A stretch of 52,859 bases of DNA from Candidatus Delongbacteria bacterium (GCA_016937995.1 JAFGVM010000029.1:1-52859); one strand, 5' to 3'. Counted from the first letter of the stretch, positions 15,101 through 29,945 are shown. Numbers and translations: made by a program. Notes: generated by a model not told the origin, from the letters alone.

Positions 15101-15268
15101 GATTATAAAACCTATCTATACAATTTTCCTGAGGAAGAACTAATCAGCAAGTACAGAAAGCAGGTGGAAATATATGCGGATGCTATAAATGATATCTATC
15201 CGGGTAAAACAGTTGAAAAATATTTATATTTCATAGGAAAAGAGAAGGCGGAATTGAATAGAGTGTAG
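9110..15268 (+). CDS. Fused AddB-like nuclease + AddA-like UvrD helicase/nuclease (single-chain AddAB)
   Basis: N-half: SASRIETFMSC, GYIDF..IVDIKS, CEYCSLGPSC. C-half: AGAGAGKT, TFTKKAAGEM, STFHSFC, VDEFQDTN, VGDKKQSIYRF, TVHSAKGLEF, LYVALTRAK, GYIDLL..LDYKT. Confidence 0.85.
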   Translation: MNINFSKIFFNNDSSIKQPEVIASSILLIKDMNQSYSIKLSMIKWLKDNGQTTTFLPEIRSIYDHAREITGTGAGKEIREEDFIVLMERCSIEGLPDKFRHKHYRNYKKNLLRFIDQRGLICDKAIEGSVTQDLLKNGLNDEIIKKIVQYINSYDLYFKGQIFDKAIKVADEPENVFSLNFFKEEISCKERKFLSELKAEKIDLISEGKYSSLANIFKEGKKIEVKFEDIDLYISESPLNEAKKIKHLILDQITKSGYSPDDFTIVCSDKDLYTTLNNVFLSLKIPVYSSYSYNGNDISTDILRLLIAALDGDTQKIMNFYNLHLAEEPIAFPDVSQYDLKTLYGKLIPRKKDDPEQSDLKLNFKTIRDSGIRKDKEKRIRDFIKTIDITDDELTVKNGLDRLHFKLKKLKEILNKQLDLDPYQYEDILNKIFGEKIIFSELLEYLYLISSKSAKICPNREQKGVRINMMNEPVSGSRFLIFSGLTQENFLKTGNSIKFLQKENYQKFYNGIFGIQPDDTLIENFRIFTSGDIENVSFFIPQWGDEFIPSTRLDEILSLHDKVIADIKILTDETGYGFENAKELKNREFNYGIKDLLSDRSVLKDIEINEDRSVEQKEQFSITFTGENIESNLSSASRIETFMSCSAKFVHELNLQYNEIESQMPYTKGNFFHDITEKFIRYYKGKELIAESEFNKLLDEFSYRNNISNTMLDYFSEYYFDSIDENHERYRSVFSDLKSKIQTSGIDKHMDDYYTNQMKNNPFGSHMYNKQKYGIINFIARLILQMGPTPAEVTKSFETEVKFCDMVVSTEPLIKIAEGYIDFMFVDIKNRVQIVDIKSTKKFKDFEEEIENYQKVQILLYRKAVLKQMNGTGGVNFNVTPGWRNPECGILKDDYFSANNASGEISSYYLSNESPYFLSCDEEDYSKFLTVLKNRLNDHKKFTSIVNSNCEYCSLGPSCPDNEQSKFEKIPGFVPECKESLPIPEFQHISSGPDGNSRDYILFSGEKDKAIRTTDSVIISAGAGAGKTEVLSSKYIHLLVNETETDIENIVCITFTKKAAGEMQNRIYRKLDEVIQSRLFVAADLGDNIQNYILSDRQIEKLKKCKNKFFDKNLISTFHSFCNDLISRYGFSSKNLENYDIDQSISEDHQVKKEIVTYLKELYQNKFSNVLDNNGIFIKWLDSRHLMYAGDNEGGFIPDLIGLYSEMKLSGKELVMSEWEKPVDKYVKEIELLYQSSAAEYLQMKEEAIELLDSEINRTDDQDEKEKLNGLREKISNDEKFTFKSILSKKKYPDEILRDHLIEFEASKQFKFINGSGIDLDLNDDEWNIKNALLNIIISLDEHISEYKRMKGVLEQNDLHLMLLEMMKDKDLRSELQKQFRHLLVDEFQDTNWLQDKIIEELSSEKNKLFIVGDKKQSIYRFQQCDVQIYEKYLSRYKKLTFTDNFRSSADIVNFNNEIFSEDSENVRDEYKIIEKDERSVAKKKNIHKTPVNFFNIICPKDIRKEDGEKFSINEKNKLIKMSEATFVAETIQKNCKVDEDYGKWAILIRKYTHIGFITEAFRKTGIPYSLILKRDLFKLNEVIEFINILKVGLGVLKPSEIEFIENSEEIFDPQLRSDDILSMIFRIYYSSAYRKYISGFEDAETKLSNIDTLILNLAEMLSDSESNKEKFLTDLDISISNNSAGVVVHNPKAVTIMTVHSAKGLEFDNLILANVDEYDNNMTGLFNYLNQWKNGDNFIDFSMSGYKTVTGESKGNFFLNEYIKDINKEFSTRETANLLYVALTRAKKSLSVIISTKEKENDNNSGSSLVWAKYLREYGENINGQIPGFKFHQLPVTEFDLSSFTQTTENDKIQHNISIEKVHDVSFSFDNDLDSATGIAHKDDEPKHETGSTLALDTGNFIHLFLSKEIDNIFDDGYELNKKLNEFKRMNSDSQGINLKTAENMLKNVITDSNFRSLLKNGKILCEKNVVHITEDRQTQGYIDLLILNDDKVIVLDYKTYLYNFPEEELISKYRKQVEIYADAINDIYPGKTVEKYLYFIGKEKAELNRV

Positions 15269-15870: not shown

Positions 15871-17124
15871 ATGAAAATTAAAGTAAACTCAGAAATAGGA
15901 AAGCTTGAGGGTGTGATACTTCATTCCCCTGGGCCGGAGATAGAGAATATGACCCCGAAGAATGCTGAAAGAGCTCTCTACAGTGATATTCTCAACCTGT
16001 CTGTTGCAAAGAAAGAATACAGGCAGTTCAAAGAGGTTCTTGAAAGGTTTACAAAAACTTTTCAGGTAAAAGACCTGCTGAATGATATTCTTCAAAACGA
16101 AAAAGTTAAACAAGATCTTATTTCAAAGATCTGTCACTATGAATGTAAAATTTCAAAGATAAATAAAATAATGGATCAATTCCTGGACCAGACGAATGAA
16201 GAGATAACGAGGCAGCTTATAGAAGGCCGCATAATGGAAAAAGATACTCTGACTAATTTTCTTGATAAGGACAGATATTCATTGAGACCTCTTCATAATT
16301 TTTTCTTCACCAGAGACTCGGCTGTTTCGATCTTTGATTCTGTACATATAAGCCGGATGGCTAACAAGGTGAGAGAAAGAGAATCTCAGATAATGGAAGC
16401 TGTTTTCGAACATCATCCTGAATTTCAGGCTAAAACTATAAATCCAATGAATTTTAATAATCTGGAGGATGATCTTACTTTCGAAGGTGGAGATATCCTT
16501 GTAATAGATAAGAATACTATTCTGATCGGTAACAGTGCCCGTACAACTACACAGGGCATTGATTATATCCTTCAGCAGATGAAACAGCATAAAGGTAAAA
16601 AACACATAATTGTCCAGGAATTACCGTATACTCCTGAATCTTTTATTCACCTCGATATGGTATTCACAATGCTGGATAAAGATAAATGTATGGTTTACAA
16701 ACCTTTGATCCTCGATTCGAACAGATACCTTACCATACACATTTCAATTGATAACGGAAAGGTCAGCATTTTTGAGGAGGATAATATATTATCAGCTTTG
16801 AAGAAGTTGGGACATGATCTTCAACCGATATTCTGTGGCGGACATTCTGATTCATATATCCAGGAGAGAGAGCAGTGGCATAGTGGAGCAAACTTTTTCG
16901 CTGTAGGCCCGGGCCAGGTGATCGGTTACGGCAGGAATGTTTATACTATAGAGGAAATGAATAAGAACGGTTTTGAAGTTTTAAAGGCTAAAGATATAAT
17001 CAAGGATAAAGTTAATCCTAAAAGTTACGACAAATTTGTAATCACTATCGATGGGTCAGAGCTGTCACGCGGCGGTGGTGGTTGCAGGTGTATGACGATG
17101 CCGGTGAGACGAAGGGGAGTTTAG
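15871..17124 (+). CDS. arcA: Arginine deiminase
   Basis: VNSEIGKL, NFFFTRD, FEGGD, HLDMVF, ELSRGGGGCRCMTMP (catalytic Cys). Confidence 0.93.
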   Translation: MKIKVNSEIGKLEGVILHSPGPEIENMTPKNAERALYSDILNLSVAKKEYRQFKEVLERFTKTFQVKDLLNDILQNEKVKQDLISKICHYECKISKINKIMDQFLDQTNEEITRQLIEGRIMEKDTLTNFLDKDRYSLRPLHNFFFTRDSAVSIFDSVHISRMANKVRERESQIMEAVFEHHPEFQAKTINPMNFNNLEDDLTFEGGDILVIDKNTILIGNSARTTTQGIDYILQQMKQHKGKKHIIVQELPYTPESFIHLDMVFTMLDKDKCMVYKPLILDSNRYLTIHISIDNGKVSIFEEDNILSALKKLGHDLQPIFCGGHSDSYIQEREQWHSGANFFAVGPGQVIGYGRNVYTIEEMNKNGFEVLKAKDIIKDKVNPKSYDKFVITIDGSELSRGGGGCRCMTMPVRRRGV

Positions 17125-17147
17125 GGTTGTGGGTTGTGGGTTGTGGG
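17124..17147 (+). repeat. GT-rich heptamer array (GGGTTGT)3, left arm
   Basis: Begins at the arcA stop; 17126-17147 is the exact reverse complement of 17614-17635. Confidence 0.9.
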
Positions 17148-17152
17148 TGCAC

Positions 17153-17515
17153 CTATTGACTTAGTTTTGACACAAGATTAGAAATCATTCTGTTTATAAT
17201 GTCACAATCCTTTAAAACATTTTTGTAGTTCTCTTGATTTATAAATTTAAGTCGATAAGAAAGTTCAAGTTGAGTTTCTACTTCCTGACTTGATGCTTTT
17301 GCAATAAATAAATATTGCATAAATTCTTTTTTAGATCTTCGCCCTTGTCCTTCAGCAATGTTTGAAGGAATACTTACAGATGCTCTTCTAATTTAGTTAG
17401 ACAGACCATATTTTTCTTCCTGAGGAAAATCCTTTGTAATCATATAAATACTTTCTGCAAGATCCATTGATCTTTGCCAAACTAATAATTCTCTGAATGA
17501 ATTCTTGTTGTTCAT
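17153..17515 (-). pseudogene. Four-helix-bundle protein (23S rRNA IVS / Avd-like family) with an internal TAA
   Basis: Manual translation MNNKNSFRELLVWQRSMDLAESIYMITKDFPQEEKYGLSN*IRRASVSIPSNIAEGQGRRSKKEFMQYLFIAKASSQEVETQL...KLSQ; TAA at 17393-17395 where the family has Gln; GAGGA RBS; not in the ORF track. Confidence 0.88.
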
Positions 17516-17613: not shown

Positions 17614-17650
17614 CCCACAACCCACAACCCACAACTCACAACTCACAACT
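17614..17650 (+). repeat. AC-rich heptamer array (CCCACAA/CTCACAA)5, right arm
   Basis: cccacaacccacaacccacaactcacaactcacaact. Confidence 0.9.
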
Positions 17651-17845: not shown

Positions 17846-20236
17846 ATGGGTAAAAAAACAGGAGTTTATCTATGTCAGTGTGGAGGTAATATATCCAACA
17901 CAATAGATCTTGAAAAAGTACAAGAACATATCAGAAAGGAAAAAGGGGAAGATGTCGAAATTAAGATTTTTTCCCATATGTGTTCTGGAGCAGGTCAGAA
18001 ACTTATAAAAGATGATATAGAGTCAGGGGTATTTGACAGAGTTGTTGTTGCGGCTTGTTCTCCGCAATTTCATGAAAAGACCTTCAAAGCAGCAATGGTG
18101 AAAGGTGGTTTGAATCCGCATGTTCTGGAGATCGCGAATCTTAGAGAGCATTGTTCTTGGACTCATAAAACTGAACCTGAAATAGCTACAACTAAAGCTA
18201 TGGATGTTGTTGACGCCTCAATTGCAAAAGTTGAGTTGAACATTCCTTTGACGGAAAAAAAGATGCAAATGGGTGAAAGGGTTCTTATCATCGGTGGAGG
18301 TATAGCGGGTATTCAGACTGCTTTAGACCTTGCTGATACCGGTAAAGAGGTCACACTTGTCGAGAAACTGCCGACCATTGGTGGTAAAATGGCCGTTCTG
18401 ACAAAAACATTCCCTACAGAGGATTGTTCCGCATGTATAATCTCACCTAAAATGTCTGATGTTCAGGACCATCCGAATATTACATTATACACAAATTCAG
18501 AAATTGAGAACATCCAGGGACACAGACTGCATTTTAAAGCAACAATAAGAAATAAAGCAAGATTCATAAAACCGGAAATTAATATGGATGAATGTCTTGC
18601 CTGTGAACAATGTGTTCAGGCATGTCCTGTTTCAACCAGAAATTACTGGGAACAGGGAGTCATTGACAGGAAGGCAATTTATATTCCTGCAGCACTGGCA
18701 ATACCGTTCAGATATATTATCGATCCTGAGACCTGTCTTAATTTCAAGGAAGGTCAATCCTGCAGTATATGTGCTGATATATGTCCTCAAAAAGTTATAG
18801 CTTTCGAGCAGGAAGATGAGATAATTGAAAAAGTATTTGATACTATTGTCGTAGCGACCGGATTTGATATCTATGACGCTACTGAAAAAGCAGTATTTGG
18901 ATACGGTAAATATAAAAATGTGGTGACTGCTCTGGAAATGGAAAGGATAGTCGATCACATTAGCGAACCTGAACCGCCAAGAGAAGTCGGTAACAGAGTT
19001 GCTTTTATTCAGTGTGTAGGGTCAAGAGACGAACAGATAGGCAGAGAATACTGCTCAAGAGTATGTTGTATGTACTCAGTAAAATTAGCCTCTTTACTGA
19101 AAGCTGCTAAACCGGAAACAGATATTTATGTATTCTATACTGACCTGAGAGCTTTTGGTAAAGGTTTTGAAGAATATTATAAAAAAGCACAGAAAATGGG
19201 TGTAAAATTTGTACGTGGAAAACCTTCACATTTTACAGAGCATCCATTCACAAAGCAGGTGTCCATAACAGTTGAAGATACTTTATCAAGACAGGTGATC
19301 GAGAGTGACTTTGATCTTGTGGTTTTAGCTAACGGTATGGGTTTAAGTAAAGCAACCGATCCAATCGCAAATTTCCTGAAACTTGCGAAGAGTGAAGACG
19401 GATTTTTAAAGGAAGCTCATCCAAAATATAAACCGGTTGATACTCTTGTAGAGGGTGTATTTATAGCCGGAACTGCTCAGGGTCCAAAAGATATTCCTGA
19501 TACAGTGGCTCAGGCAAGTGCAGCCGCTTCGCGTGTGATGGTAACTTTAGCACAAAAAGAATTCAGTATCGATCCGATCCTCGCATTTGTGGATCAGGAT
19601 AAATGTGACGGATGTAAATTATGTATAGATAATTGTCCGAAAAATGCAATTTCAATGAATTCTAATGGAAAAGCTGAAGTTGAAGAAGCACTTTGTCTTG
19701 GTTGCGGATCATGTATTGCAAGTTGCCCTACTGAAGCTTTAGATCTTTACGCATATACTTCAGATCAAATTTATGCTTCAATCGATGCAATGCTCTCGAA
19801 CAAAAACGAAAACGAAAAAAGAATACTTGTATTCGCAGATAATAACTGTACTTACAGAGTTGCAGATGCTCTCGGAGTAAGAAAGATGAAGTACACCGGT
19901 GAAACCAGGATATTAAGAATGCCTAGCAGTGGCAGGGTAACACTAAATCTAATGATGTATGCTTTCAAAAAAGGTGCGGATGCTATTCTTGTCGGAGATT
20001 GTGAAGTGAACAATCTTAGAGTACCTTGGACCAGTGAAGTTGCAAAAAAGAATATTGAAATTGCAAAGGCAAGATTGATCGAATCAGGTGTTCCAGGGGA
20101 TAGAATATATTTTGAAGAGTTCAATGCAGGTGCTTTACAAAGATTTGTTGATACAGTAACTAAAATATCAGAATCAATAAAAGGATTCGAACCAATTACT
20201 TCTGAGGTAAAGGAGGGATTATGCCAAAGAAAATAA
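17846..20236 (+). CDS. hdrA: Heterodisulfide reductase subunit A fused to a C-terminal MvhD/FlpD-like domain
   Basis: GVYLCQCGGNI, NLREHCSW, IGGGIAG, KTFPTEDCSACI, QCVGSRD..YCSRVCCMY, ferredoxin CxxCxxCxxxCP motifs; C-terminal CTYRVAD..SGRV..GADAILVGDC. Confidence 0.92.
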   Translation: MGKKTGVYLCQCGGNISNTIDLEKVQEHIRKEKGEDVEIKIFSHMCSGAGQKLIKDDIESGVFDRVVVAACSPQFHEKTFKAAMVKGGLNPHVLEIANLREHCSWTHKTEPEIATTKAMDVVDASIAKVELNIPLTEKKMQMGERVLIIGGGIAGIQTALDLADTGKEVTLVEKLPTIGGKMAVLTKTFPTEDCSACIISPKMSDVQDHPNITLYTNSEIENIQGHRLHFKATIRNKARFIKPEINMDECLACEQCVQACPVSTRNYWEQGVIDRKAIYIPAALAIPFRYIIDPETCLNFKEGQSCSICADICPQKVIAFEQEDEIIEKVFDTIVVATGFDIYDATEKAVFGYGKYKNVVTALEMERIVDHISEPEPPREVGNRVAFIQCVGSRDEQIGREYCSRVCCMYSVKLASLLKAAKPETDIYVFYTDLRAFGKGFEEYYKKAQKMGVKFVRGKPSHFTEHPFTKQVSITVEDTLSRQVIESDFDLVVLANGMGLSKATDPIANFLKLAKSEDGFLKEAHPKYKPVDTLVEGVFIAGTAQGPKDIPDTVAQASAAASRVMVTLAQKEFSIDPILAFVDQDKCDGCKLCIDNCPKNAISMNSNGKAEVEEALCLGCGSCIASCPTEALDLYAYTSDQIYASIDAMLSNKNENEKRILVFADNNCTYRVADALGVRKMKYTGETRILRMPSSGRVTLNLMMYAFKKGADAILVGDCEVNNLRVPWTSEVAKKNIEIAKARLIESGVPGDRIYFEEFNAGALQRFVDTVTKISESIKGFEPITSEVKEGLCQRK

Positions 20237-20625
20237 AACTTACTGATAAAGGTGCTGAATTTTTAAAGCAGATCGAAAAATTGAGCGGTGAAACGATAAC
20301 AATGTGTGATCAGTGCGGAACATGCTCCGGTGGATGCCCGTTCGTTGAGGAAATGGATATAACACCATCCCAGATCATGAGAAAGACAATGCTCGGTCAG
20401 ATGGATGTACTTGATTCTAAAACAATGTGGATATGTGCATCATGCTTTACCTGTACAGTAAGATGTCCAAGGATACTTGATGTTTCTAAAGTATCAGAAG
20501 CTCTAAGACAGACTAAGCTGCGTCAGGCTATTGATAATATTGATATTAAGGATATTTCAAAAGAAGATGCTGAAGAATTGCCTTCTATCGCTGTAGTATC
20601 AGCTTTCAGAAAGTTCACCAGCTAA
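20221..20625 (+). CDS. hdrC: Heterodisulfide reductase subunit C-like 2x[4Fe-4S] protein
   Basis: CDQCGTCSGGCP and WICASCFTCTVRCPR. Confidence 0.88.
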   Translation: MPKKIKLTDKGAEFLKQIEKLSGETITMCDQCGTCSGGCPFVEEMDITPSQIMRKTMLGQMDVLDSKTMWICASCFTCTVRCPRILDVSKVSEALRQTKLRQAIDNIDIKDISKEDAEELPSIAVVSAFRKFTS

Positions 20626-20656
20626 TGTTATTCTAATAAATTCAGGATGAGAATAG

Positions 20657-21559
20657 ATGAAAGACAATATTAAAATACCTTATTTCCCTGGTTGTACACT
20701 AAAAACAACTGCAAAGAATTTTGAGATATCTGCAATTGAAGCAGGTAAAAAGATCGGAATTGAGATGGTCGAAATGCCTAAATGGAACTGTTGCGGAGTT
20801 GTATCATCTTTAACAAGTGATGACCTTATGAAGCATGTAGCTCCTGTGAGAAATTTTGTACATGCGGAAGAAATGTCTGAAAAGGGAACGGTAAATGACA
20901 GCAGAATGTTAATTCTTTGTTCAATGTGCTTCAACACAATGAAGAACACCAACAGAAGAGTAAAGAACAATGCTGAAGATATGAAATCGATCAATGATTT
21001 TATGTATCTTGAAAAAGATTATGAGGGAAAAGTTGAAGTGGTTCATTATTTTGAACTTCTTAAAGAGATCGGGTTTGATAAAATAGCTGAGAAAGTAACA
21101 AAATCGTTGAAAGATATGAAAATAGCTCCTTATTACGGATGTATGCTGCTCAGACCAAAGGAAATAGGAATAGATAACGCTGAAGCTCCGGCTATAATTG
21201 AGGATTTTATTACTTCTGTAGGTGCTGAACCGGTCAATTGGGATGCCAAAGGAAGATGTTGCGGAAGTTATCACACTGTTAACAATAAGGATATAGTCGT
21301 TAATCTGGCAAAAGGTATAATTGAGAATGCTCATAGATCAGGAGCAGATGCGATAATCACATCATGCCCGCTTTGTGCCTTCAATCTTGATAACAGACAA
21401 AAGCTTATCATGGAAAAAGATCCGAACTTCAAGACTATGCCGGTTTTTTATTTTACTCAGTTACTAGCATTAGCACTCGGACTGGAAGAGAAGTTCATTG
21501 GATTGGAAGATCATTACATTGATCCAAAGGAACTGTTGAAAAATAAAAATTTAATATAA
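20657..21559 (+). CDS. hdrB: Heterodisulfide reductase subunit B (CCG domains)
   Basis: YFPGC, WNCCG, CSMC, YYGC, RCCG, SCPLC. Confidence 0.9.
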   Translation: MKDNIKIPYFPGCTLKTTAKNFEISAIEAGKKIGIEMVEMPKWNCCGVVSSLTSDDLMKHVAPVRNFVHAEEMSEKGTVNDSRMLILCSMCFNTMKNTNRRVKNNAEDMKSINDFMYLEKDYEGKVEVVHYFELLKEIGFDKIAEKVTKSLKDMKIAPYYGCMLLRPKEIGIDNAEAPAIIEDFITSVGAEPVNWDAKGRCCGSYHTVNNKDIVVNLAKGIIENAHRSGADAIITSCPLCAFNLDNRQKLIMEKDPNFKTMPVFYFTQLLALALGLEEKFIGLEDHYIDPKELLKNKNLI

Positions 21560-21574
21560 TGTTTAGGAGTAATT

Positions 21575-22261
21575 ATGTCTGATGCTCAAAAAATGGTGAA
21601 AGTATATGTCATGGGTGAAGCATACATGGTACCGGAAGGTTCTACCATAATCGGAGCCTTTGAATATGCCGGATTCCAGTTGAAAAGAGGTGTAGGTTGC
21701 CGTGAAGGGTTCTGCGGGGCCTGTGCAACTGTTTACAGAGAAAAAGGTGATTATAAAATGAAAGGCGGACTTGGTTGCCAGACCGTTGTAACTGACGAAA
21801 TGTATATTGCACAGATACCTTTTGTACCTGCCGATAAACCAACGTACAAGATGGAAGAGATAACACCTGATGCAGGGACTTTCATGAATTTGTATCCGAG
21901 TGTTTTCAGATGTGTATCATGTAATACCTGTACCAAAGCATGTCCTCAGGACATTCAGGTAATGGATTACATTCAGGCGATCATTAGGGGAGATATTGCT
22001 GAGGCGGCAAGTTTATCATTTGACTGTATAAGATGCGGACTTTGTGCACTTCGATGTCCTGCAGAGATAGTTCAGTTCAATGCTGCTATCTTAGCCCAAA
22101 GACTTTATGGAAAATATATTGCACCTCAAAGTAAGGAACTTGAAGCAAGAGTAAACGAGATCATTGAAGGGAAGTATGAAAAAGAATTGAATGATCTTGT
22201 TGGAATGGCTAAACAGGAACTTATCGATAAATATTACAGTCGTGAAATAAAAATATCTTAG
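21575..22261 (+). CDS. SdhB/FrdB/TfrB-like iron-sulfur subunit ([2Fe-2S] + 2x[4Fe-4S])
   Basis: GCREGFCGAC...GC; CVSCNTCTKACP; CIRCGLCALRCP. Confidence 0.82.
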   Translation: MSDAQKMVKVYVMGEAYMVPEGSTIIGAFEYAGFQLKRGVGCREGFCGACATVYREKGDYKMKGGLGCQTVVTDEMYIAQIPFVPADKPTYKMEEITPDAGTFMNLYPSVFRCVSCNTCTKACPQDIQVMDYIQAIIRGDIAEAASLSFDCIRCGLCALRCPAEIVQFNAAILAQRLYGKYIAPQSKELEARVNEIIEGKYEKELNDLVGMAKQELIDKYYSREIKIS

Positions 22262-22270
22262 GGAGAGACC

Positions 22271-23941
22271 ATGTATCCAGAATATATGCAGGAATCTATT
22301 AAAAAAGTAGAATCAACCAGACCGGATAGATTGGAACTTGCCCGTAAACTTGGTAAGATGATCTACCCGGGGATGAACGAACAGGAGAGAGAAGTTGTTC
22401 TGAATGATAATCATCCTGATTACAAAGCAGATGCAAGAAGAGAAGTAAAAGTAGGACCTGATAAAGGTATGATCCTTACTACTGAAATTGCAGATATGCT
22501 AGAAACTTACTCGAGAATTGATATTGATAATTTTGATCTTTCAAAAGCTGATATCGAAACAGATGTTTTGATAATTGGAGCAGGTTCAGCGGGAATGTCT
22601 GCAGCTATAGTGGCTTCTGAGAAAGGTGCTGATGTTCTGTTGGCAACTAAATTACGTCTGGGAGATTCAAATTCGATGATGGCCCAGGGTGGAATTCAGG
22701 CAGCTGACCAGGCTGATGATTCACCTGCGATACATTATTTAGATGTTATAGGTGGAGGTCATTTTGATAACAAACCTGAACTTGTAAAAGCATTGGTAAA
22801 CGATGCTCCATTATCTATCAAATGGCTTGAAGATATGGGTGTAATGTTCGACAAGGACGATACAGGTAACATGAAAGTTAAAGCCGGCGGTGGTACAAGC
22901 AGGAACAGAATGCATTCTGCAAGAGATTATACCGGTGCAGCTATCTGTAAAGTTATAAGAGATGAGGTTTATAACAGAAAAGATAAGATAAAATATCTTG
23001 AGTATACCGCTATAGTTGAGCTTCTATTAAATGATAAGAAAGAAGTATCAGGTGCAGTGATGTACCATCTTGAGAATAAGCAGTTCTCAATTGTAAAAGC
23101 TAAATCAGTTATCGTTGCAACCGGTGGTTTCGGCAGACTTCATATCAGAGGTTTTGAGACAAGTAATCACTATGGTGCAACTGCTGACGGTATAGCATTT
23201 GCTTATAGAGCAGGTGCTCATTTATTATATATGGATTCTGTTCAATATCATCCAACTGGTGCGATTTTTCCTGAGCAGATCGTAGGTTTCCTTTGTACTG
23301 AGAAAATAAGAGGGATCGGTGCTCAACCAGTAAATAAGGACGGTGAGCTTTTCGTATATCCTTTAGAGCCTCGAGATGTTGAAGCATCAGCTTTCATTCG
23401 TGAATGCAATGCAGGTAGAGGTATTTCAACTCCTTCAGGATTAAAAGGTATATGGCTTGACACTCCACTTATCGATCAGATCAATGGAGAAGGTACGATT
23501 GAGAAGGAACTTCCTGCTATGCTTAGACAATATCAGAGATTCGGTATAGATATAAGAGAAGTACCAATGCTTGTTTATCCTACTCTTCATTATCAAAACG
23601 GTGGAATAGATATTAATGACAAGTGTGAAACTAATATTCCAGGTCTTTATGTAGCAGGTGAAGCTACAGGTGGAGTTCACGGCAGGAACAGACTTATGGG
23701 TAACTCACAGCTTGACATAATAGTATTCGGTAAGAGAGCCGGAATTTATGCTGCTGAGAGAGCTCAATCTATAGAAGATGCAGGAAATATGACTTTAGAT
23801 CATGTAATTTCTTACAATGAAGAAGTTGCTGAACTTGGAATTGAAAGAAATAAAGTTTCTCCTGTGATCCTTCCTGATTATATTCCTGATCACGTAAAAG
23901 CAAAACAACTGATCAATGAATATAACGGAACGTTGATATAA
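22271..23941 (+). CDS. Fumarate reductase/succinate dehydrogenase-family flavoprotein (non-covalent FAD type)
   Basis: IGAGSAG, SNSMMAQGG, QYHPTG, TEKIRG, PRD, HYQNGG, HGRNRLMGNS. Confidence 0.88.
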   Translation: MYPEYMQESIKKVESTRPDRLELARKLGKMIYPGMNEQEREVVLNDNHPDYKADARREVKVGPDKGMILTTEIADMLETYSRIDIDNFDLSKADIETDVLIIGAGSAGMSAAIVASEKGADVLLATKLRLGDSNSMMAQGGIQAADQADDSPAIHYLDVIGGGHFDNKPELVKALVNDAPLSIKWLEDMGVMFDKDDTGNMKVKAGGGTSRNRMHSARDYTGAAICKVIRDEVYNRKDKIKYLEYTAIVELLLNDKKEVSGAVMYHLENKQFSIVKAKSVIVATGGFGRLHIRGFETSNHYGATADGIAFAYRAGAHLLYMDSVQYHPTGAIFPEQIVGFLCTEKIRGIGAQPVNKDGELFVYPLEPRDVEASAFIRECNAGRGISTPSGLKGIWLDTPLIDQINGEGTIEKELPAMLRQYQRFGIDIREVPMLVYPTLHYQNGGIDINDKCETNIPGLYVAGEATGGVHGRNRLMGNSQLDIIVFGKRAGIYAAERAQSIEDAGNMTLDHVISYNEEVAELGIERNKVSPVILPDYIPDHVKAKQLINEYNGTLI

Positions 23942-23942
23942 G

Positions 23943-23970
23943 AAAAAGGCAGGAAATCCCTGCCTTTTTT
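23943..23970 (+). terminator. Rho-independent terminator
   Basis: aaaaaggcagg-aaat-ccctgcctttttt. Confidence 0.75.
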
Positions 23971-23990
23971 CATCTGCTCTAAGCCAAAAG

Positions 23991-24051
23991 AGAGACGCTC
24001 ATATAGAGCGTCTATACGAACACACGTAAAGACGTCCTACATGGGCGTCTC
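23991..24051. repeat. Pair of degenerate GTAGAGACG-type REP-like palindromes
   Basis: agagacgctc-atata-gagcgtctatacg and cgtaaagacgtcc-tacat-gggcgtctc. Confidence 0.55.
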
Positions 24052-24077
24052 GATAGAACAAAAACGAGAGAAGCAAT

Positions 24078-25247
24078 ATGAAAATACACGAATATCAGGC
24101 AAAAGAACTTTTTGCAAAATATGGAATCCCTATCCCTGCAGGTAAAATGATCCACAACTCAGAAGAGGCAATGGAAACAGCAAAAGAGATCGGTGGAGGG
24201 ATCTGGGCAGTGAAAGCTCAGATACATGCAGGCGGTAGAGGTAAAGGTGGTGGTGTTAAACTGGCAAGAACTATCACTGAAGTAAAAGAACATGCTGAAA
24301 GTATACTAGGTATGAACTTGATCACGGCTCAGACCGGAGCTGAAGGTCAGCTTGTAAGAAAGATATACATTGAAGGCGGAGTTGATATAGCAAAAGAATT
24401 CTATATGGGAATGGTTTTAGACAGAGCAACTGAAGTACCGGTAATGATGGTGTCTACAGAAGGTGGAATGGAGATAGAAAAAGTTGCTGCTGAAACACCT
24501 GAAAAGATCGTTAAGGTCAGTATTGATCCGCTCTATGGTCTTCAGGCTTTCCAGATAATGGAAATGGGTTATAAAATAGGATTACATAAAAAAGAAATGA
24601 AAGAATTTTATCAGTTCGCAAAAAAATTATACGAACTGTATATAGATATGGATGCAAGTATCGTTGAAATAAATCCGCTTGTACTTACCACAGACGATAA
24701 GTTCGTTGCCCTTGATGCAAAAATAGCTTTTGACGATAATGCTTTATACAGGCATCCAGCAATAGTGGAAATGAGAGATTTTTCAGAAGAGGAACCGGCA
24801 GAACTTGAAGCGGATAAATACGGATTGAGTTATGTGAAACTCGACGGGAATGTAGGATGCATGGTTAACGGTGCAGGACTCGCTATGTCTACAATGGATA
24901 TAATCAAGCATGAAGGCGGAAATCCGGCCAATTTTCTTGATGTTGGTGGTGCTGCAAGTGCGGTTACTGTAGCAAAAGGGTTTGAGATCATACTTAAAGA
25001 TCCTAATGTTAAAGCAATTTTTGTGAATATATTTGGAGGTATTGTCCGTTGTGACAGGATAGCTAATGGTATACTTGAAGCAACTAAAGTGACAAATGTA
25101 ACAGTTCCGATCATAGTCAGGCTTGATGGTACAAATTCAGATGAAGCTTCCGAAATATTGGAAAATGCGCACTTGAATAACATTATACCGGCTAAAGATC
25201 TTGCTGACGGTGCTAAACTGGCTGTTGAAGCAGCGGGAGGTAGATAG
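24078..25247 (+). CDS. sucC: Succinyl-CoA synthetase beta subunit
   Basis: [51 protein letters not shown]. Confidence 0.96.
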
Positions 25248-25248
25248 T

Positions 25249-26121
25249 ATGAGTATATTTGTAAATAAAGATTCTAAGGTCATTATTCAGGGTTTTACAG
25301 GAAAAGAAGGCACTTTCCATGCTCAGCAATGTATTGACTACGGAACGAATATCGTTGGAGGAGTTACTCCTGGTAAAGGCGGAGAGCATCATCTTGATAA
25401 AGATGTTTTCAACACAGTAAAGGATGCTGTTGCTCAAACAGGAGCTGATGTGTCGTTAATATTTGTCCCGCCTGCTTTCGGTGCGGATGCCATAATGGAA
25501 GCAGCAGATGCCGGAATAAAGATAATCGTATGCATTACAGAGGGAATTCCTGTAAAAGATATAATGCTGGCAAAAAAATTTGTAGAAAAAAAAGGTTCAA
25601 GGTTGATCGGTCCTAATTGTCCTGGAATAATCACAGCAGAAGAAGCCAAGATCGGGATCATGCCTGGATTTATCTTTAAGAAGGGAAATATAGGTGTTAT
25701 TTCAAAATCAGGAACTTTGACCTATGAAGCTGCTAATCAGGTCGTAAAAGCCGGCTACGGTGTATCAACTGCAATTGGTATCGGTGGCGATCCGATAATC
25801 GGAACTTCATTTATAGATGCTCTGAAAGAGTTTAAAGATGATCCTGAAACAGAAGCGGTCGTTCTCATAGGTGAGATCGGTGGTGATCTTGAAATACAAG
25901 CTGCAAACTATATCAAAGAACACTTCGATAAACCTGTGGTCGCTTTCATAGCCGGACAGACTGCTCCTAAAGGGAAGAGAATGGGTCATGCAGGAGCTAT
26001 TATTGCAGGAAGTGCAGGAACAGCTGCCGAAAAGATGGAAGCATTGAGAGATGCCGGTGTATTTGTGTCAGAATCACCTGCAATGATCGGGGAAAGTATA
26101 AAGAAAGTTATGGAAGGATAG
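25249..26121 (+). CDS. sucD: Succinyl-CoA synthetase alpha subunit
   Basis: [32 protein letters not shown] (phospho-His); ATG25249 after GGAGG. Confidence 0.96.
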
Positions 26122-26191
26122 TTATGAGTTGAGGGTTGTGGGTTGTGAGCGAACTAACAACTAACAAATAACAACTAACAACACATAACCT
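26120..26191 (+). repeat. Adjacent GT-rich and AC-rich heptamer arrays with no cargo
   Basis: agttatgagttgagggttgtgggttgtgag followed by aactaacaactaacaaataacaactaacaacacataacct. Confidence 0.8.
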
Positions 26192-26231
26192 GCTAATTCA
26201 AACTTCTAATTTAAAATTATACGGAGTAATT

Positions 26232-27077
26232 ATGAGAGAAATTCACGTTGACGAAATTATCTCCTCAGTAAAGAAACTCAGTATCAAAGCAAATTATTAT
26301 CTTGGACAGGATGTAATTGATAAGATGAAGTCTATGAAGGAGACTGAAGAATCAGAAACTGCGAAAGAAGTAATGGATATTCTTCTGCAGAATTATGAAA
26401 TGGCCGTAAAAGAACAAATGCCGATATGTCAGGATACAGGAGTTGCGGTTATTTTTGTAGAACTTGGTCAGGATGTTCATATCGTAGGCGGGGATTTTGT
26501 AGAATCTATCAATGAAGGTGTCAGACAGGGTTATAAAGACGGATTCCTGAGAAAATCAATGGTGGACGATCCTGTGATAGACAGAAAGAATACTACTGAC
26601 AATACTCCTGCAATAATTTACACTGATATTGTTCCCGGAGATAAGATCAGGATCACTTTAGCTCCGAAAGGTGGTGGAGCGGAGAATATGAGTGAAGTCA
26701 AGATGATGAAAGCTGCTGATGGTCTTGAAGGTGTTATTGATTTCGTAGTTGACAGGATAAAAAGATCAGGTGGAAATCCATGCCCACCAATAGTGGTTGG
26801 TGTTGGTCTTGGAGGAAATTTTGAGCAGAGTGCTTTATTAGCTAAAAAATCTTTACTCAGAAATTTGAACGATCCAAATCCTGATCCTAAATGGGATAAA
26901 GTAGAAAAGGATATTCTGGCAAAAATAAATGATCTTGGTATCGGTCCTCAGGGACTCGGTGGAAGAACTACAGCATTGGCAGTTCATATTTTGACTAAAC
27001 CTTGTCATATAGCTTCAATGCCTGTAGCAGTAAATGTTCAGTGTCACGCAGCAAGACATAAATCAATAACTTTATAA
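26232..27077 (+). CDS. Class I fumarate hydratase, alpha (N-terminal) subunit
   Basis: PICQDTG, PKGGGAEN, NPCPP, HIASMPVAVNVQCHAAR. Confidence 0.92.
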   Translation: MREIHVDEIISSVKKLSIKANYYLGQDVIDKMKSMKETEESETAKEVMDILLQNYEMAVKEQMPICQDTGVAVIFVELGQDVHIVGGDFVESINEGVRQGYKDGFLRKSMVDDPVIDRKNTTDNTPAIIYTDIVPGDKIRITLAPKGGGAENMSEVKMMKAADGLEGVIDFVVDRIKRSGGNPCPPIVVGVGLGGNFEQSALLAKKSLLRNLNDPNPDPKWDKVEKDILAKINDLGIGPQGLGGRTTALAVHILTKPCHIASMPVAVNVQCHAARHKSITL

Positions 27078-27089
27078 TTTGGAGAAATT

Positions 27090-27644
27090 ATGGCAAAGAC
27101 AGTTTATCTAAATACACCGATAGATAGTAATGACCTGATAGATCTCCAGACAGGAGATAAAGTTTACATTACAGGTACGATATATACTGCAAGAGATGCA
27201 GCCCACAAAAGACTTGTTGCATTACTGGATGAAGGAAAAGAATTACCGTTCGATCCTAATGGTCAGGTAATTTATTATGTTGGTCCTGCACCTACTCCTC
27301 CCGGAAAAGCGATCGGTTCAGCAGGTCCTACGACAAGTTATAGAATGGATCCTTATGCCCCTGCTTTGCTTGATGCAGGTATAAAAGCTATGATCGGCAA
27401 AGGTCCGAGAGACGTCTCTGTTAAAGACTCAATGGTAAAGAATAAAGCGGTTTATCTTGCCGCAATAGGTGGAGCTGCGGTTGTCGTAGCAAATTCCATA
27501 ACTAAAGCTGAAATTATCGCCTATGAAGATCTTGGTGCTGAAGCAATTAGAAAACTTGAGGTAAAAGAGTTCCCGTGCATTGTAGCCAACGATGTCAATG
27601 GGAATGATATATATGATGAAGGAGTGAAGAAGTATCAAAGATAG
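27090..27644 (+). CDS. Class I fumarate hydratase, beta (C-terminal) subunit
   Basis: TARDAAHKR, GPTTSYRMD, MIGKG, DLGAEAI. Confidence 0.92.
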   Translation: MAKTVYLNTPIDSNDLIDLQTGDKVYITGTIYTARDAAHKRLVALLDEGKELPFDPNGQVIYYVGPAPTPPGKAIGSAGPTTSYRMDPYAPALLDAGIKAMIGKGPRDVSVKDSMVKNKAVYLAAIGGAAVVVANSITKAEIIAYEDLGAEAIRKLEVKEFPCIVANDVNGNDIYDEGVKKYQR

Positions 27645-27706
27645 TTGTGAGTTTAGGGTTGTGAGTTGTGAGTAACCCATAACCCACAACCAACAACTCA
27701 AAACCT
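27643..27706 (+). repeat. Inverted heptamer arrays forming a long imperfect hairpin with no cargo
   Basis: agttgtgagtttagggttgtgagttgtgagt / aacccataacccacaaccaacaactcaaaacct. Confidence 0.85.
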
Positions 27707-27738
27707 AAATCTAAATTCTAATTTTAAATAAACGGAGA

Positions 27739-29199
27739 GTGAGTATGGAAAAGATCAAAATGGATCTATCAAACCTGAACAATGCATTTCCTGATGATTT
27801 TACTGAAGAACAGATAGCTAAAGGTAAAACACTGTTCCTTAAGAAATTGTCAGAGTCAGCACATAAATTCTATGGCGGAAAGATACAAACTGCGCCAAAA
27901 GCAGGTGTTTTCGGTTTTAACTGGTTCAATGTCTGGTATACTCCGGGTGTTTCAAAGGTCTCTACAGAGATAAGAGATAACAACGATACTTCATTTGAAT
28001 TAAGCAACAGAGGTAATCTTGTAGGTGTTGTAAGTGATTCTACAAGAGTTCTGGGTGATGGCGACTGTACTCCTCCCGGAGGTCTTGGTGTAATGGAAGG
28101 AAAAGCTTTCCTAATGAAATATCTTGGTGGAGTTGATGCAGTAGCTCTTTGTGTTGACAGTAAAGATAAAGATGGTAAGAATGATCCGCAGAAAATAATA
28201 GATTTTGTTAAAATGTGTCAGCACAGCTTTGGTGCTATCAATCTGGAAGATATATCACAGCCGAATTGCTTCAAAGTTCTTGATGTTCTTAGAGAGGAAT
28301 GCGATATACCTGTTTGGCATGATGATGCTCAGGGAACTGCAAGTGTTACTCTGGCGGGTTTAATTAATGCTCTTAAGCTGGCTAAGAAAGATATTAAAGA
28401 TGTTAAGATCGTTCTTCTTGGAGCTGGAGCATCAAATACAACTATTGCGAGACTTATTATAACAGATGGAGCAGATCCCGGTAATTTGATAATGTTCGAC
28501 TCTAAAGGGTCTTTAAACAAGGGTAGAGCAGATATTGAAGCTGATAAGAGATTCTACAGAAAGTGGGAACTCTGTGAGACAACAAATAAAGATCAGGTTA
28601 AAACTATCGAAGAAGCTTTCGTAGGTGCTGATGTTCTTATCGCATTGTCAACTCCGGGTCCTGACACTGTCAAGAAGGAATGGATCGCAACTATGGCTGA
28701 AAAAGCTATTGTATTTACCTGTGCTAATCCTGTTCCTGAGATCTATCCCTATGCAGCTAAAGAAGCAGGTGCTTTCATAGTTGCTACAGGTAGGGGAGAC
28801 TTTCCTAATCAGGTTAATAATTCTATCGGTTTCCCAGGTATCTTAAAAGGTGCTTTGATGGTAAGAGCAAGAAAGATCACTGATAATATGGCAATTGCTG
28901 CTGCCCATTCACTTGCCGATTATGCTGAGAAACGTGGTATAGATCCTGAGAATATCGTTCCAACTATGGATGAAGCGACTGTATTCCCAGTTGAATCTGC
29001 TGATGTAGCTATGCAGGCGATCAAAGATGGCGTAGCAAGGATCAATATGACCTGGGATGAGGCTTTTGCTAAGGCTAAGGAAGATATTGATTATTCCAGA
29101 GGAATGACTAAAAATCTTATGGATAATGGTTTTATTGGAAAACCTGAAGATAAGATGCTTGAAGACGCTCTTCAATGGGCGATCAATGAGTTAAGATAA
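27739..29199 (+). CDS. NAD(P)-dependent malic enzyme
   Basis: YTPGV, VMEGKA, INLEDI, HDDAQGTA, GAGAS, ANPVPEI, TGRGDFPNQVNN. Confidence 0.92.
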   Translation: MSMEKIKMDLSNLNNAFPDDFTEEQIAKGKTLFLKKLSESAHKFYGGKIQTAPKAGVFGFNWFNVWYTPGVSKVSTEIRDNNDTSFELSNRGNLVGVVSDSTRVLGDGDCTPPGGLGVMEGKAFLMKYLGGVDAVALCVDSKDKDGKNDPQKIIDFVKMCQHSFGAINLEDISQPNCFKVLDVLREECDIPVWHDDAQGTASVTLAGLINALKLAKKDIKDVKIVLLGAGASNTTIARLIITDGADPGNLIMFDSKGSLNKGRADIEADKRFYRKWELCETTNKDQVKTIEEAFVGADVLIALSTPGPDTVKKEWIATMAEKAIVFTCANPVPEIYPYAAKEAGAFIVATGRGDFPNQVNNSIGFPGILKGALMVRARKITDNMAIAAAHSLADYAEKRGIDPENIVPTMDEATVFPVESADVAMQAIKDGVARINMTWDEAFAKAKEDIDYSRGMTKNLMDNGFIGKPEDKMLEDALQWAINELR

Positions 29200-29225: not shown

Positions 29226-29945
29226 TTATTCAAATGCGTTATCAGTCTTCCAGACTTCCCAAACCTTACCTACAAGGTCAGGTCCCGGTTTTAAAGTCAT
29301 TTTACCAGGTTTCCAACCTGAAGGTGTTGCTTCTCCACCTTTGCTTTCTCTGACAAGCTGAAATGCCTGTATCTGTCTAATTGTTTCACTTACATTTCTT
29401 CCAACAGGAGGAGTTAATACTTCATATCCCTGAACAACTCCATCAGGGTCTATGATAAATCTTCCTCTTGTTTCTACACCTGCATCTTCATCGTAGATAC
29501 CATAGATAGTTCCGACCTTTCCACCACCGTCAGAGCACATAGCGTAAGGAATTCCACCATCGACCATTTTAGAAAGTTCTTTTTCATTCCACATCTTATG
29601 AACGAACACACTGTCAACGCTCATTGATAATACTTCTACACCAAGTTTTTGAAATTCTGGATATTTTGCAGCAACTGCTGACACTTCAGTAGCTCAAACA
29701 AATGTGAAATCACCGGGATAGAAACATAATACTACCCATTTACCCAGATAATCAGAAAGTTTGACGTTAACGAATTTTCCATTGTGAAAAGCCGGTGCTG
29801 TAAAGTCCGGAGCTTTTTTTCCTACTTTGATCATTGGTCTTTCCTCCTTTTGAGACTTTTGTTCAATTACTTTTTCAGGTACACTCCCTGATCCAACAGG
29901 ACCACCCGTCGGTCTTGCACAACCGGGTTTAAATTCATCCGGCAT
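29226..29945 (-). CDS. prxU: Selenocysteine-containing peroxiredoxin (one 239-aa ORF through an in-frame UGA)
   Basis: [12 protein letters not shown](29694-29696)-ATEVSAV aligns with the AhpC FTFVCPTE motif; the two track ORFs are in the same frame. Confidence 0.9.

Follow-up and report, generated by a model that had tools for sequence, protein, structure and literature searches.

An hdr-linked, anchorless fumarate reductase predicted from a compact gene cluster of Candidatus Delongbacteria

Linkage of hdr genes with an anchorless Fe-S/flavoprotein pair

The DNA analysed here, a 52,859-nt stretch from Candidatus Delongbacteria bacterium (GCA_016937995.1 JAFGVM010000029.1:1-52859), is referred to as a whole as the window and carries, at positions 17846-29199, a cluster of ten open reading frames (ORFs) on the plus strand that were identified by Pfam and NCBIfam profiles (Table 1). 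We consider it moderately probable that the first five of them (17846-23941), coding for an HdrA-MvhD fusion, HdrC-like and HdrB-like proteins, an SdhB-like iron-sulfur (Fe-S) subunit and an FrdA-like flavoprotein, encode one soluble, quinone-independent, anchorless, probably electron-bifurcating fumarate reductase; from the data below we infer complex formation in the cell, the electron donor, bifurcation and the direction of flux. A first-pass annotation, made from the DNA alone, had described ten co-oriented genes with these identities, which the ORF coordinates and both profile collections bore out. It had also proposed a cytoplasmic, quinone-independent, Hdr-coupled fumarate reductase, and the gene linkage, a modelled complex, the catalytic residues and the absences from the host genome are all consistent with that suggestion.

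A scan of one genome per species yielded 598 pattern matches, 564 of them encoding a relative, and the best 80 loci were studied. In these, the flavoprotein is 60-82% identical to that of the window. The Fe-S gene lies directly 5' of the flavoprotein gene at every one of the 75 loci for which 800 nt or more of upstream DNA is available, and an hdr gene occurs in the fetched DNA at 59 of the 80. Where both flanks extend for 9 kb or more (33 loci), some hdr gene is present at 28, hdrB at 26 and hdrA at 27. No hdr or Fe-S match on the opposite strand was found at any of the 80 loci. The host labels include Delongbacteria, Cloacimonadota, Marinimicrobia, Aminicenantes, Sumerlaeota, Eubacteriales, Myxococcales, Bacteroidales and Gallionellaceae. 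As far as gene neighbourhoods can tell, the partnership of Hdr with an anchorless Fe-S/flavoprotein pair is real and widespread.

The order of the genes varies among these best 80 loci. The arrangement hdrC-hdrB-hdrA-FeS-flavoprotein was seen at 15 of them and the match order hdrB-hdrA-FeS-flavoprotein at 14, as in locus L043 (Aminicenantes/'Eubacteriales' type), where the complete series is hdrB-korDABC-hdrA-mvhD-flxCBA-FeS-flavoprotein and the flavoprotein is 63% identical to that of the window. In the Gallionellaceae type the Fe-S/flavoprotein pair stands 5' of the hdr genes, and at the Ca. Tenebribacter locus (L053) the flavoprotein is 71% identical. The first-pass annotation had named conserved synteny as a check on its proposal: the same-strand association with hdr genes held (in the 28 of 33 fully flanked loci given above), but the window's own order, hdrA-hdrC-hdrB-FeS-flavoprotein, was kept at only 6 of the 80 loci. 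A fumarase gene was present at 17 of these loci, sucC or sucD at 12 and malic enzyme at 12.

The flavoprotein and its Fe-S partner

The flavoprotein has a FAD_binding_2 domain at residues 98-479 (Pfam) preceded by a 95-residue N-terminal extension, and no match to Succ_DH_flav_C (PF02910) was found in the Pfam search. Its AlphaFold2 model (predicted TM-score, pTM, 0.82; mean predicted local distance difference test, pLDDT, 79) has FrdA (1kf6_A) as the top Foldseek match, with E 2.7e-31. When aligned with E. coli FrdA, it keeps all the residues that bind or protonate fumarate, i.e. H327, T343, E344, R347, R368, H440 and R474. The alignment also places Asn134 at the position of the flavin-linking His of E. 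coli FrdA and M. smegmatis SdhA. N134, the catalytic residues and many residues of the N-terminal extension are invariant in 30 homologues of 60-90% identity. The FAD is predicted to be bound non-covalently. In E. coli FrdA His44 mutants and in SdhA mutants, loss of the covalent FAD link is reported to abolish succinate oxidation, while fumarate reduction is retained. On the strength of the FrdA mutants, an invariant Asn in place of the flavin-linking His would favour the reductive direction.

The family of the flavoprotein was assessed by curated thresholds of hidden Markov models, and it scores below every one of them. The best NCBIfam model is TfrA (NF004900; 341.2 bits against a cut-off of 718, covering profile positions 5-411 of 546), followed by SdhA/FrdA (TIGR01812; 286.8 bits, cut-off 567.3) and NadB (TIGR00551; 283.4 bits, cut-off 452.75). 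L-aspartate oxidase NadB is a monomer that is not known to have an Fe-S partner. The possibility that the flavoprotein is NadB was considered and rejected, as a true NadB is encoded elsewhere in the genome, on contig C9 (TIGR00551, 535 bits against the cut-off of 452.75).

The Fe-S subunit contains a [2Fe-2S] motif, C42-x4-C47-x2-C50...C68, and two CxxCxxCxxxCP motifs, at 113 and 151; all 12 of its Cys are invariant in 26 sequences. Since the third motif is a complete CxxCxxCxxxCP, a second [4Fe-4S] cluster is expected instead of the quinone-proximal [3Fe-4S] cluster. The three-motif pattern of SdhB/FrdB is incomplete, no [3Fe-4S]-type motif being present, and the TIGR00384 score is 26 bits against a cut-off of 88. 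The score against TfrB (NF004898) is 31.4 bits for a cut-off of 385, and the SdhB models are also weak. Neither Pfam nor NCBIfam detected a CCG domain in this subunit, which is consequently not a TfrB; the CCG domains of the system come from the separate HdrB. Among solved structures the Fe-S subunit is without a close relative, the best SdhB match having E 1e-5.

The Hdr module and the modelled complex

Residues 4-650 of the HdrA-MvhD fusion align to residues 5-650 of 5odc_A, i.e. to Methanothermococcus HdrA over its full length (E 2.6e-193), and residues 655-784 align to MvhD (5odc_D, E 3.5e-14), with Pfam FlpD at 660-780. The full-length architecture of the structurally characterised bifurcating 5ODC type, HdrA (an N-terminal cluster, the FAD domain and both the inserted and the C-terminal ferredoxin domain) plus MvhD, is thus present. 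The score against NCBIfam HdrA2 is 867 bits for a cut-off of 1100, over profile positions 1-776 of 777; because HdrA is below all NCBIfam equivalog cut-offs, it is not the methanogen enzyme itself. HdrB and HdrC likewise score below the methanogen equivalog cut-offs. The HdrC-like protein (TIGR03290, 67.5 bits, cut-off 160) has two CxxCxxCxxxC motifs, and its eight cluster Cys are all invariant in 26 sequences. HdrB reaches 178.9 bits with TIGR03288 (cut-off 345) and 154 bits with the SdhE model of methylmenaquinol:fumarate reductase (cut-off 500), and it aligns over its full length to solved HdrB chains (E 1e-37 to 2e-43). Its ten non-cubane cluster Cys, which make up two C...CCG...CxxC motifs (C13, C45, C46, C88, C91, C162, C201, C202, C237 and C240), are each invariant in 26 sequences. 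HdrA is presumed to hold the bifurcating flavin site and the MvhD domain to be the electron entry point.

HdrB, HdrC and the Fe-S subunit were modelled together as a complex, with a 26-row alignment for each, in three runs and with three controls. The first-pass annotation had suggested modelling the complex as a check, and the outcome favoured its proposal: the complex score was 0.84 (runs 0.87, 0.81 and 0.84), the best control having 0.00. In these runs at least 90% of the contacts were in agreement, and the pLDDT of the partner was at least 79. In the modelled interface, residues 111-117 of the Fe-S subunit (with C113 and C116) face residues 11-13 and 42-47 of HdrB (with C13, C45 and C46), and the C-terminal tail of HdrC, residues 109-133, contacts the Fe-S subunit. 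The model supports, but does not prove, that the Fe-S subunit binds HdrB and HdrC. As the Fe-S subunit lacks a close solved relative, its part in the success of the model is unlikely to be a memorised structure. The predicted placement of Fe-S ligands against the HdrB cluster ligands suggests direct electron transfer between the two proteins.

The host genome

The genome to which the window belongs comprises 2.75 Mb in 99 contigs and is 96.95% complete. In family searches of this genome, no Sdh_cyt membrane anchor, no [NiFe] hydrogenase, no MenD and no MqnA/D were found; DsrC was not found either. Quinone synthesis, membrane Sdh and DsrC were among the checks of the genome suggested by the first-pass annotation, and these results support its proposal. 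Its statement that the window has no membrane anchor, hydrogenase, Flx or DsrC gene was likewise confirmed by the whole-genome family searches, which placed no Sdh_cyt, [NiFe] hydrogenase, [FeFe] hydrogenase, Flx homologue or DsrC in the window, where the remaining genes are not all annotated by family. The genome has no Citrate_synt domain, a search that covers both citrate synthase and ATP-citrate lyase. Its sole UbiA-family gene (contig C56, 123388-124215; L086) matches best the models of archaeal-type geranylgeranylglycerol-phosphate (GGGP) prenyltransferases, all below cut-off, and looks from its sequence like a GGGP-type gene rather than MenA.

Other redox functions are present. The genome encodes Rnf, five POR-family enzymes, including a Kor-like set on contig C88, and a sole [FeFe] hydrogenase of the NADH-dependent type with a NuoEF-like partner (contig C75). 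A methylmalonyl-CoA mutase gene adjoins that of PEP carboxykinase, and two carboxyltransferases are encoded. All the best Flx-like matches of the genome, homologues of FlxA, FlxB and FlxC, are found on contig C11, where a redox cluster at approximately 17.5-41.5 kb (L083, L084) also encodes a 1486-aa GltD-like/HdrA fusion, an FrhB-like protein, a sulfur transporter, an HdrC-like protein, a 1045-aa double HdrA, two more HdrA-like proteins and three MvhD-like ORFs of about 66 aa. This cluster thus has four HdrA-like genes in total, and no HdrB was found in it.

With phmmer, the HdrB of the window was the only CCG protein of the genome to be recovered. That it is the only one was overturned by a Pfam CCG match on contig C2 (53380-54618; L099), an orphan 412-aa Fe-S/CCG protein of the GlpC/HdrD/LdhH kind, whose gene adjoins lpxK and has no partner dehydrogenase gene nearby.

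Proposed mechanism

In the mechanism that we propose, a low-potential two-electron donor would pass electrons to the MvhD domain and from there to the HdrA flavin. The best candidate for this donor, which is not in the operon, would be the NADH-oxidising Flx-like module of contig C11. The exergonic branch would lead from HdrA through the HdrC clusters to the non-cubane clusters of HdrB, and then through the [4Fe-4S], [4Fe-4S] and [2Fe-2S] clusters of the SdhB-like subunit to the non-covalent FAD and fumarate, which would replace the heterodisulfide of methanogens as high-potential acceptor. In the second branch, the other electron of each pair would reduce ferredoxin via the ferredoxin domains of HdrA. 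Succinate activated by SucCD could then be used, together with reduced ferredoxin, by the Kor-like 2-oxoglutarate synthase; the products may also enter the methylmalonyl-CoA route to propionate, and surplus reduced ferredoxin could be consumed by Rnf. According to textbook potentials, NADH (-320 mV) can reduce fumarate (+33 mV) and ferredoxin (~-450 mV) together, with a net yield of ~-43 kJ/mol.

A more specific version, which we put forward only tentatively, is that of a self-contained minimal bifurcating fumarate reductase. The non-cubane clusters of HdrB, converted from disulfide chemistry, would serve as a simple wire to the SdhB-like subunit, and the NADH input would be supplied in trans by the HdrB-less Flx-HdrA set. 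Succinate and reduced ferredoxin would thereby be produced together in a fermenter without quinones or citrate synthase, feeding 2-oxoglutarate synthesis, propionate formation and Rnf, and allowing fumarate respiration without a membrane-bound reductase.

If the enzyme does bifurcate, fumarate reduction would join the reduction of crotonyl-CoA and of heterodisulfide as a driver of ferredoxin reduction. This would account for the energy that many anaerobes having neither quinones nor a membrane fumarate reductase obtain from fumarate, and for their supply of reduced ferredoxin for 2-oxoglutarate synthesis. The compact five-gene version of the window, in which MvhD is fused to HdrA and no Flx, Kor or hydrogenase gene is interleaved, would be a convenient construct for a biochemical test.

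Several points weigh against a bifurcating fumarate reductase. No electron donor is encoded in the operon or in the rest of the window, and the Flx-like genes of contig C11 adjoin other HdrA paralogues, which they may serve. An Nqr-like cluster on contig C36 would normally need a quinone, and all the absences from the genome rest on a draft of 99 contigs. Five of the 33 fully flanked loci have no nearby hdr gene; that all five genomes concerned encode an HdrB homologue elsewhere speaks, on the other hand, for the proposal. HdrB keeps all ten cluster Cys, so that a thiol/disulfide intermediate is possible. The complex score is the model's own confidence, and the calibration of its mark, which 58 of 80 solved complexes attained along with 2 of 110 mismatched pairs, holds only roughly because our own alignments were used. 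According to Mitchell et al. 2024 (PMC11636981), the Hdr-Flx cluster of a tubeworm symbiont is co-expressed except for tfrAB. Finally, biochemistry on any member of this cluster type was not found in a literature search that left many subscription journals outside, which matches the statement of the first-pass annotation that no biochemically characterised complex of such composition was known to it.

Alternative explanations

An operon without a donor module would also suit a soluble fumarate reductase that does not bifurcate, Hdr being a Fe-S/flavin wire from reduced ferredoxin or another single donor without energy coupling. Reduced ferredoxin should be plentiful in a cell with five POR-type enzymes, and not every HdrA homologue is known to bifurcate. 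This explanation is nevertheless unlikely, because HdrA matches the bifurcating type over its full length and bears the MvhD entry domain, because the operon of locus L043 joins the pair with FlxABCD and Kor, as would fit NADH input and ferredoxin output, and because ferredoxin electrons sent straight to fumarate would waste ~480 mV. It is quite unlikely that the five genes form two enzymes communicating by a thiol/disulfide carrier, where HdrABC would reduce a disulfide and a Tfr-like enzyme would re-oxidise the thiols with fumarate, like the methanogen thiol:fumarate reductase. The conserved ten Cys of HdrB would agree with such a scheme, and published annotations name the pair TfrAB and draw a CoM/CoB or DsrC-like carrier (PMC8542988, PMC11636981). 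However, the Fe-S subunit (31 bits with the TfrB model, cut-off 385) is devoid of the CCG domain in which methanogen TfrB has its thiol site, the single HdrB of the operon would have to serve both reactions, and DsrC was not found in the genome, where coenzyme M/coenzyme B (CoM/CoB) biosynthesis genes were not searched for. The complex model, with Fe-S ligands set against HdrB cluster ligands, also suggests direct transfer.

The reverse reaction was the other option raised by the first-pass annotation. A confurcating succinate dehydrogenase would function in syntrophic propionate oxidation, bringing the electrons of succinate and reduced ferredoxin onto NAD+ or a H2-forming partner. Propionate oxidation has been suggested for Cloacimonadota relatives (PMC12590816). 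The genome encodes the reversible enzymes methylmalonyl-CoA mutase, SucCD, fumarase and malic enzyme, as well as an NADH-dependent [FeFe] hydrogenase. The invariant Asn at the flavinylation His (30 of 30 aligned sequences) disfavours this option, since non-covalent FAD is reported, for FrdA and SdhA mutants, to support fumarate reduction and not succinate oxidation; together with the marginal thermodynamics, this makes it more doubtful still than a thiol carrier. That the flavoprotein acts on another substrate, e.g. L-aspartate or another enoate, could be suspected from the similar scores of the NadB (283 bits) and Frd models (287-341 bits), all below cut-off, but it is very unlikely in view of the true NadB elsewhere in the genome, the conserved Fe-S partner, which NadB is not known to have, the dicarboxylate-binding His and Arg, all of which are kept, and the fumarase (17), sucC/sucD (12) and malic enzyme (12) genes among the 80 loci. 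The least probable explanation is a type E quinol:fumarate reductase, in which the CCG protein would be a peripheral membrane anchor like SdhE. The 154 bits of HdrB with the SdhE model are far below the cut-off of 500, and HdrA and HdrC would be left without a role; the Nqr-like cluster does hint at a quinone, but MenD, MqnA/D and a MenA-type prenyltransferase were not found in the genome.

Comparison with known and proposed systems

The idea of an Hdr-linked fumarate reductase has been in print since 2019. For tubeworm symbionts, a complex of tfrAB and korABCD with flxABCD-hdrABC was proposed by Rubin-Blum et al. 2019 (PMC6315080), and PMC13147460 repeats the proposal in the form of a joint reduction of fumarate and ferredoxin by NADH. 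A 'succinate operon' was described in Pseudoclostridium thermosuccinogenes by Koendjbiharie et al. 2020 (PMC7282089), whose reference 15 is a 2019 preprint (Koendjbiharie, van Kranenburg), and Williams et al. 2021 (PMC8542988) presented TFR-Hdr-Mvh clusters in Cloacimonadota. As the idea is already published, the window adds no new concept. The novelty that the first-pass annotation had raised with caution stands for the biochemical test, which was not found in the literature, but not for the concept, which appears in PMC6315080, PMC7282089, PMC8542988 and PMC13147460. The copy in the window stands apart by its compactness, with five genes, an MvhD domain fused to HdrA and an operon free of Flx, Kor and hydrogenase genes, and by a host in which citrate synthase, [NiFe] hydrogenase and markers of the quinone pathway are absent.

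The closest likeness is to the P. thermosuccinogenes succinate operon (PMC7282089) and the tfrAB-flxABCD-hdrABC-korABCD clusters of tubeworm symbionts and Thioflavicoccus (PMC6315080). All of these combine genes for an anchorless Fe-S/flavoprotein pair with those for HdrABC and MvhD, and in the published systems fumarate reduction is proposed to be coupled to ferredoxin reduction. The arrangement expected of such a cluster, an anchorless pair of this subfamily on the same strand as, and adjoining, hdrA, hdrB and hdrC, is found in the window as well. Unlike the published systems, the window operon has neither Flx nor Kor genes, the Flx-like genes being on contig C11 and the Kor-like genes on contig C88; its MvhD is fused to HdrA, and its gene order recurs in no more than the 6 of 80 loci mentioned above. 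A reverse tricarboxylic acid (TCA) cycle setting, as read for relatives by Williams et al. 2021 and Rubin-Blum et al. 2019, was considered for the present host and rejected: there is no Citrate_synt domain in this 97% complete genome, and without citrate synthase or ATP-citrate lyase the setting is not that cycle.

In the Antarctic Cloacimonadota, Ca. Celaenobacter has a TFR-Hdr(-Mvh) cluster (PMC8542988) of the same protein family, likewise with fumarase and succinyl-CoA synthetase in its neighbourhood. This cluster differs by a [NiFe] Mvh hydrogenase and an OGOR, and its authors interpreted it as a reverse TCA cycle driven by H2 and operating via CoM-S-S-CoB, whereas the genome of the window has no [NiFe] hydrogenase and no citrate-cleaving or citrate-forming enzyme. 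The five-subunit soluble fumarate reductase of Hydrogenobacter thermophilus (Miura et al. 2008, as described in PMC13147460) is biochemically proven and has an FrdA-homologous A subunit; compared by that description only, it is NADH-linked and irreversible, with bifurcation unreported there.

In the methanogen MvhADG-HdrABC complex (5ODC), HdrA, MvhD and HdrB align full length to those of the window, where all cluster ligands are present. The window differs in the absence of a hydrogenase, in an HdrC shortened to 134 aa and in the SdhB-like/FrdA-like pair standing where the heterodisulfide would be the acceptor. The thiol:fumarate reductase TfrAB of Methanothermobacter, attributed to Heim et al. 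1998, is reportedly soluble and anchorless, with CCG-domain chemistry. TfrA is the closest curated model for the flavoprotein of the window, yet the score remains below cut-off; in addition, the Fe-S subunit has no C-terminal CCG half and the flavoprotein carries an extra N-terminal extension. The published 'TfrAB' label is therefore inexact for a pair whose Fe-S subunit is without the thiol-oxidising CCG half and whose flavoprotein is below the TfrA, FrdA and NadB thresholds.

Organization of the gene cluster and neighbouring features

The features of the cluster are listed in Table 1. The gaps between the first five genes are -16, 31, 15 and 9 nt, and these genes are followed by a hairpin, so that the tight spacing up to a terminator noted in the first-pass annotation was upheld. 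The stem of this terminator, GGCAGG/CCUGCC, lies at 23948-23964, and the flanking A and U runs are also paired in the fold (-17.2 kcal/mol, z = -4.7; none of 200 shuffles was as stable). A consensus terminator scanner did not list the hairpin at 23948, probably because the A/T runs on either side extend the stem by pairing. More hairpins occur in the spacer that separates the terminator from sucC (23975-24077), including a minus-strand terminator-like site at 24013-23993. No Rfam family reached its gathering score anywhere in the window, and the cluster spacers thus hold no known riboswitch. The longest sucD ORF begins with TTG and overlaps sucC by 47 nt (25201-25247); since the NF004230 match begins only at residue 17, the actual start is probably near 25249, right after the sucC stop.

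Table 1. Genes and terminator of the cluster at 17846-29199 of the window.
Feature	Position	Strand	Description
hdrA-mvhD fusion	17846..20236	+	796 aa; flavoprotein with multiple Fe-S clusters and C-terminal MvhD/FlpD domain
hdrC-like	20221..20625	+	134 aa; two [4Fe-4S] motifs
hdrB-like	20657..21559	+	300 aa; two CCG domains (Pfam)
SdhB-like Fe-S subunit	21575..22261	+	228 aa; one [2Fe-2S] motif, two complete [4Fe-4S] motifs
FrdA-like flavoprotein	22271..23941	+	556 aa; FAD_binding_2
Intrinsic terminator	23942..23970	+	Hairpin with U-run, 3' of the flavoprotein gene
sucC, succinyl-CoA synthetase beta	24078..25247	+	NF001913, 574.7 bits (cut-off 370)
sucD, succinyl-CoA synthetase alpha	25201..26121	+	NF004230, 449 bits (cut-off 336)
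Class I Fe-S fumarase alpha	26232..27077	+	NF004885, 409.6 bits (cut-off 276)
Class I Fe-S fumarase beta	27090..27644	+	NF005310, 267.4 bits (cut-off 238)
Malic enzyme	27739..29199	+	Pfam malic and Malic_M; NF009501, 252 bits (below cut-off)

Upstream of the cluster, a 2052-aa ORF occupies 9110-15268. Two 31-nt inverted repeats made of GGGTTGT heptads (17117-17147 and 17614-17644, 90% complementary) are located a short distance 5' of hdrA. They flank a minus-strand gene of the 23S_rRNA_IVP family (PF05635) at 17153-17515, which is interrupted by one in-frame TAA at 17393-17395. On the other side of the cluster, the minus strand at 29226-29945 carries a peroxiredoxin gene in which an in-frame TGA (29694-29696) stands precisely where the peroxidatic Cys would be encoded (DFTFV*ATE). 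As a tRNA-SeC was detected with ARAGORN in the same genome, on contig C11 (49584-49679), this gene is a candidate for a selenocysteine peroxiredoxin.

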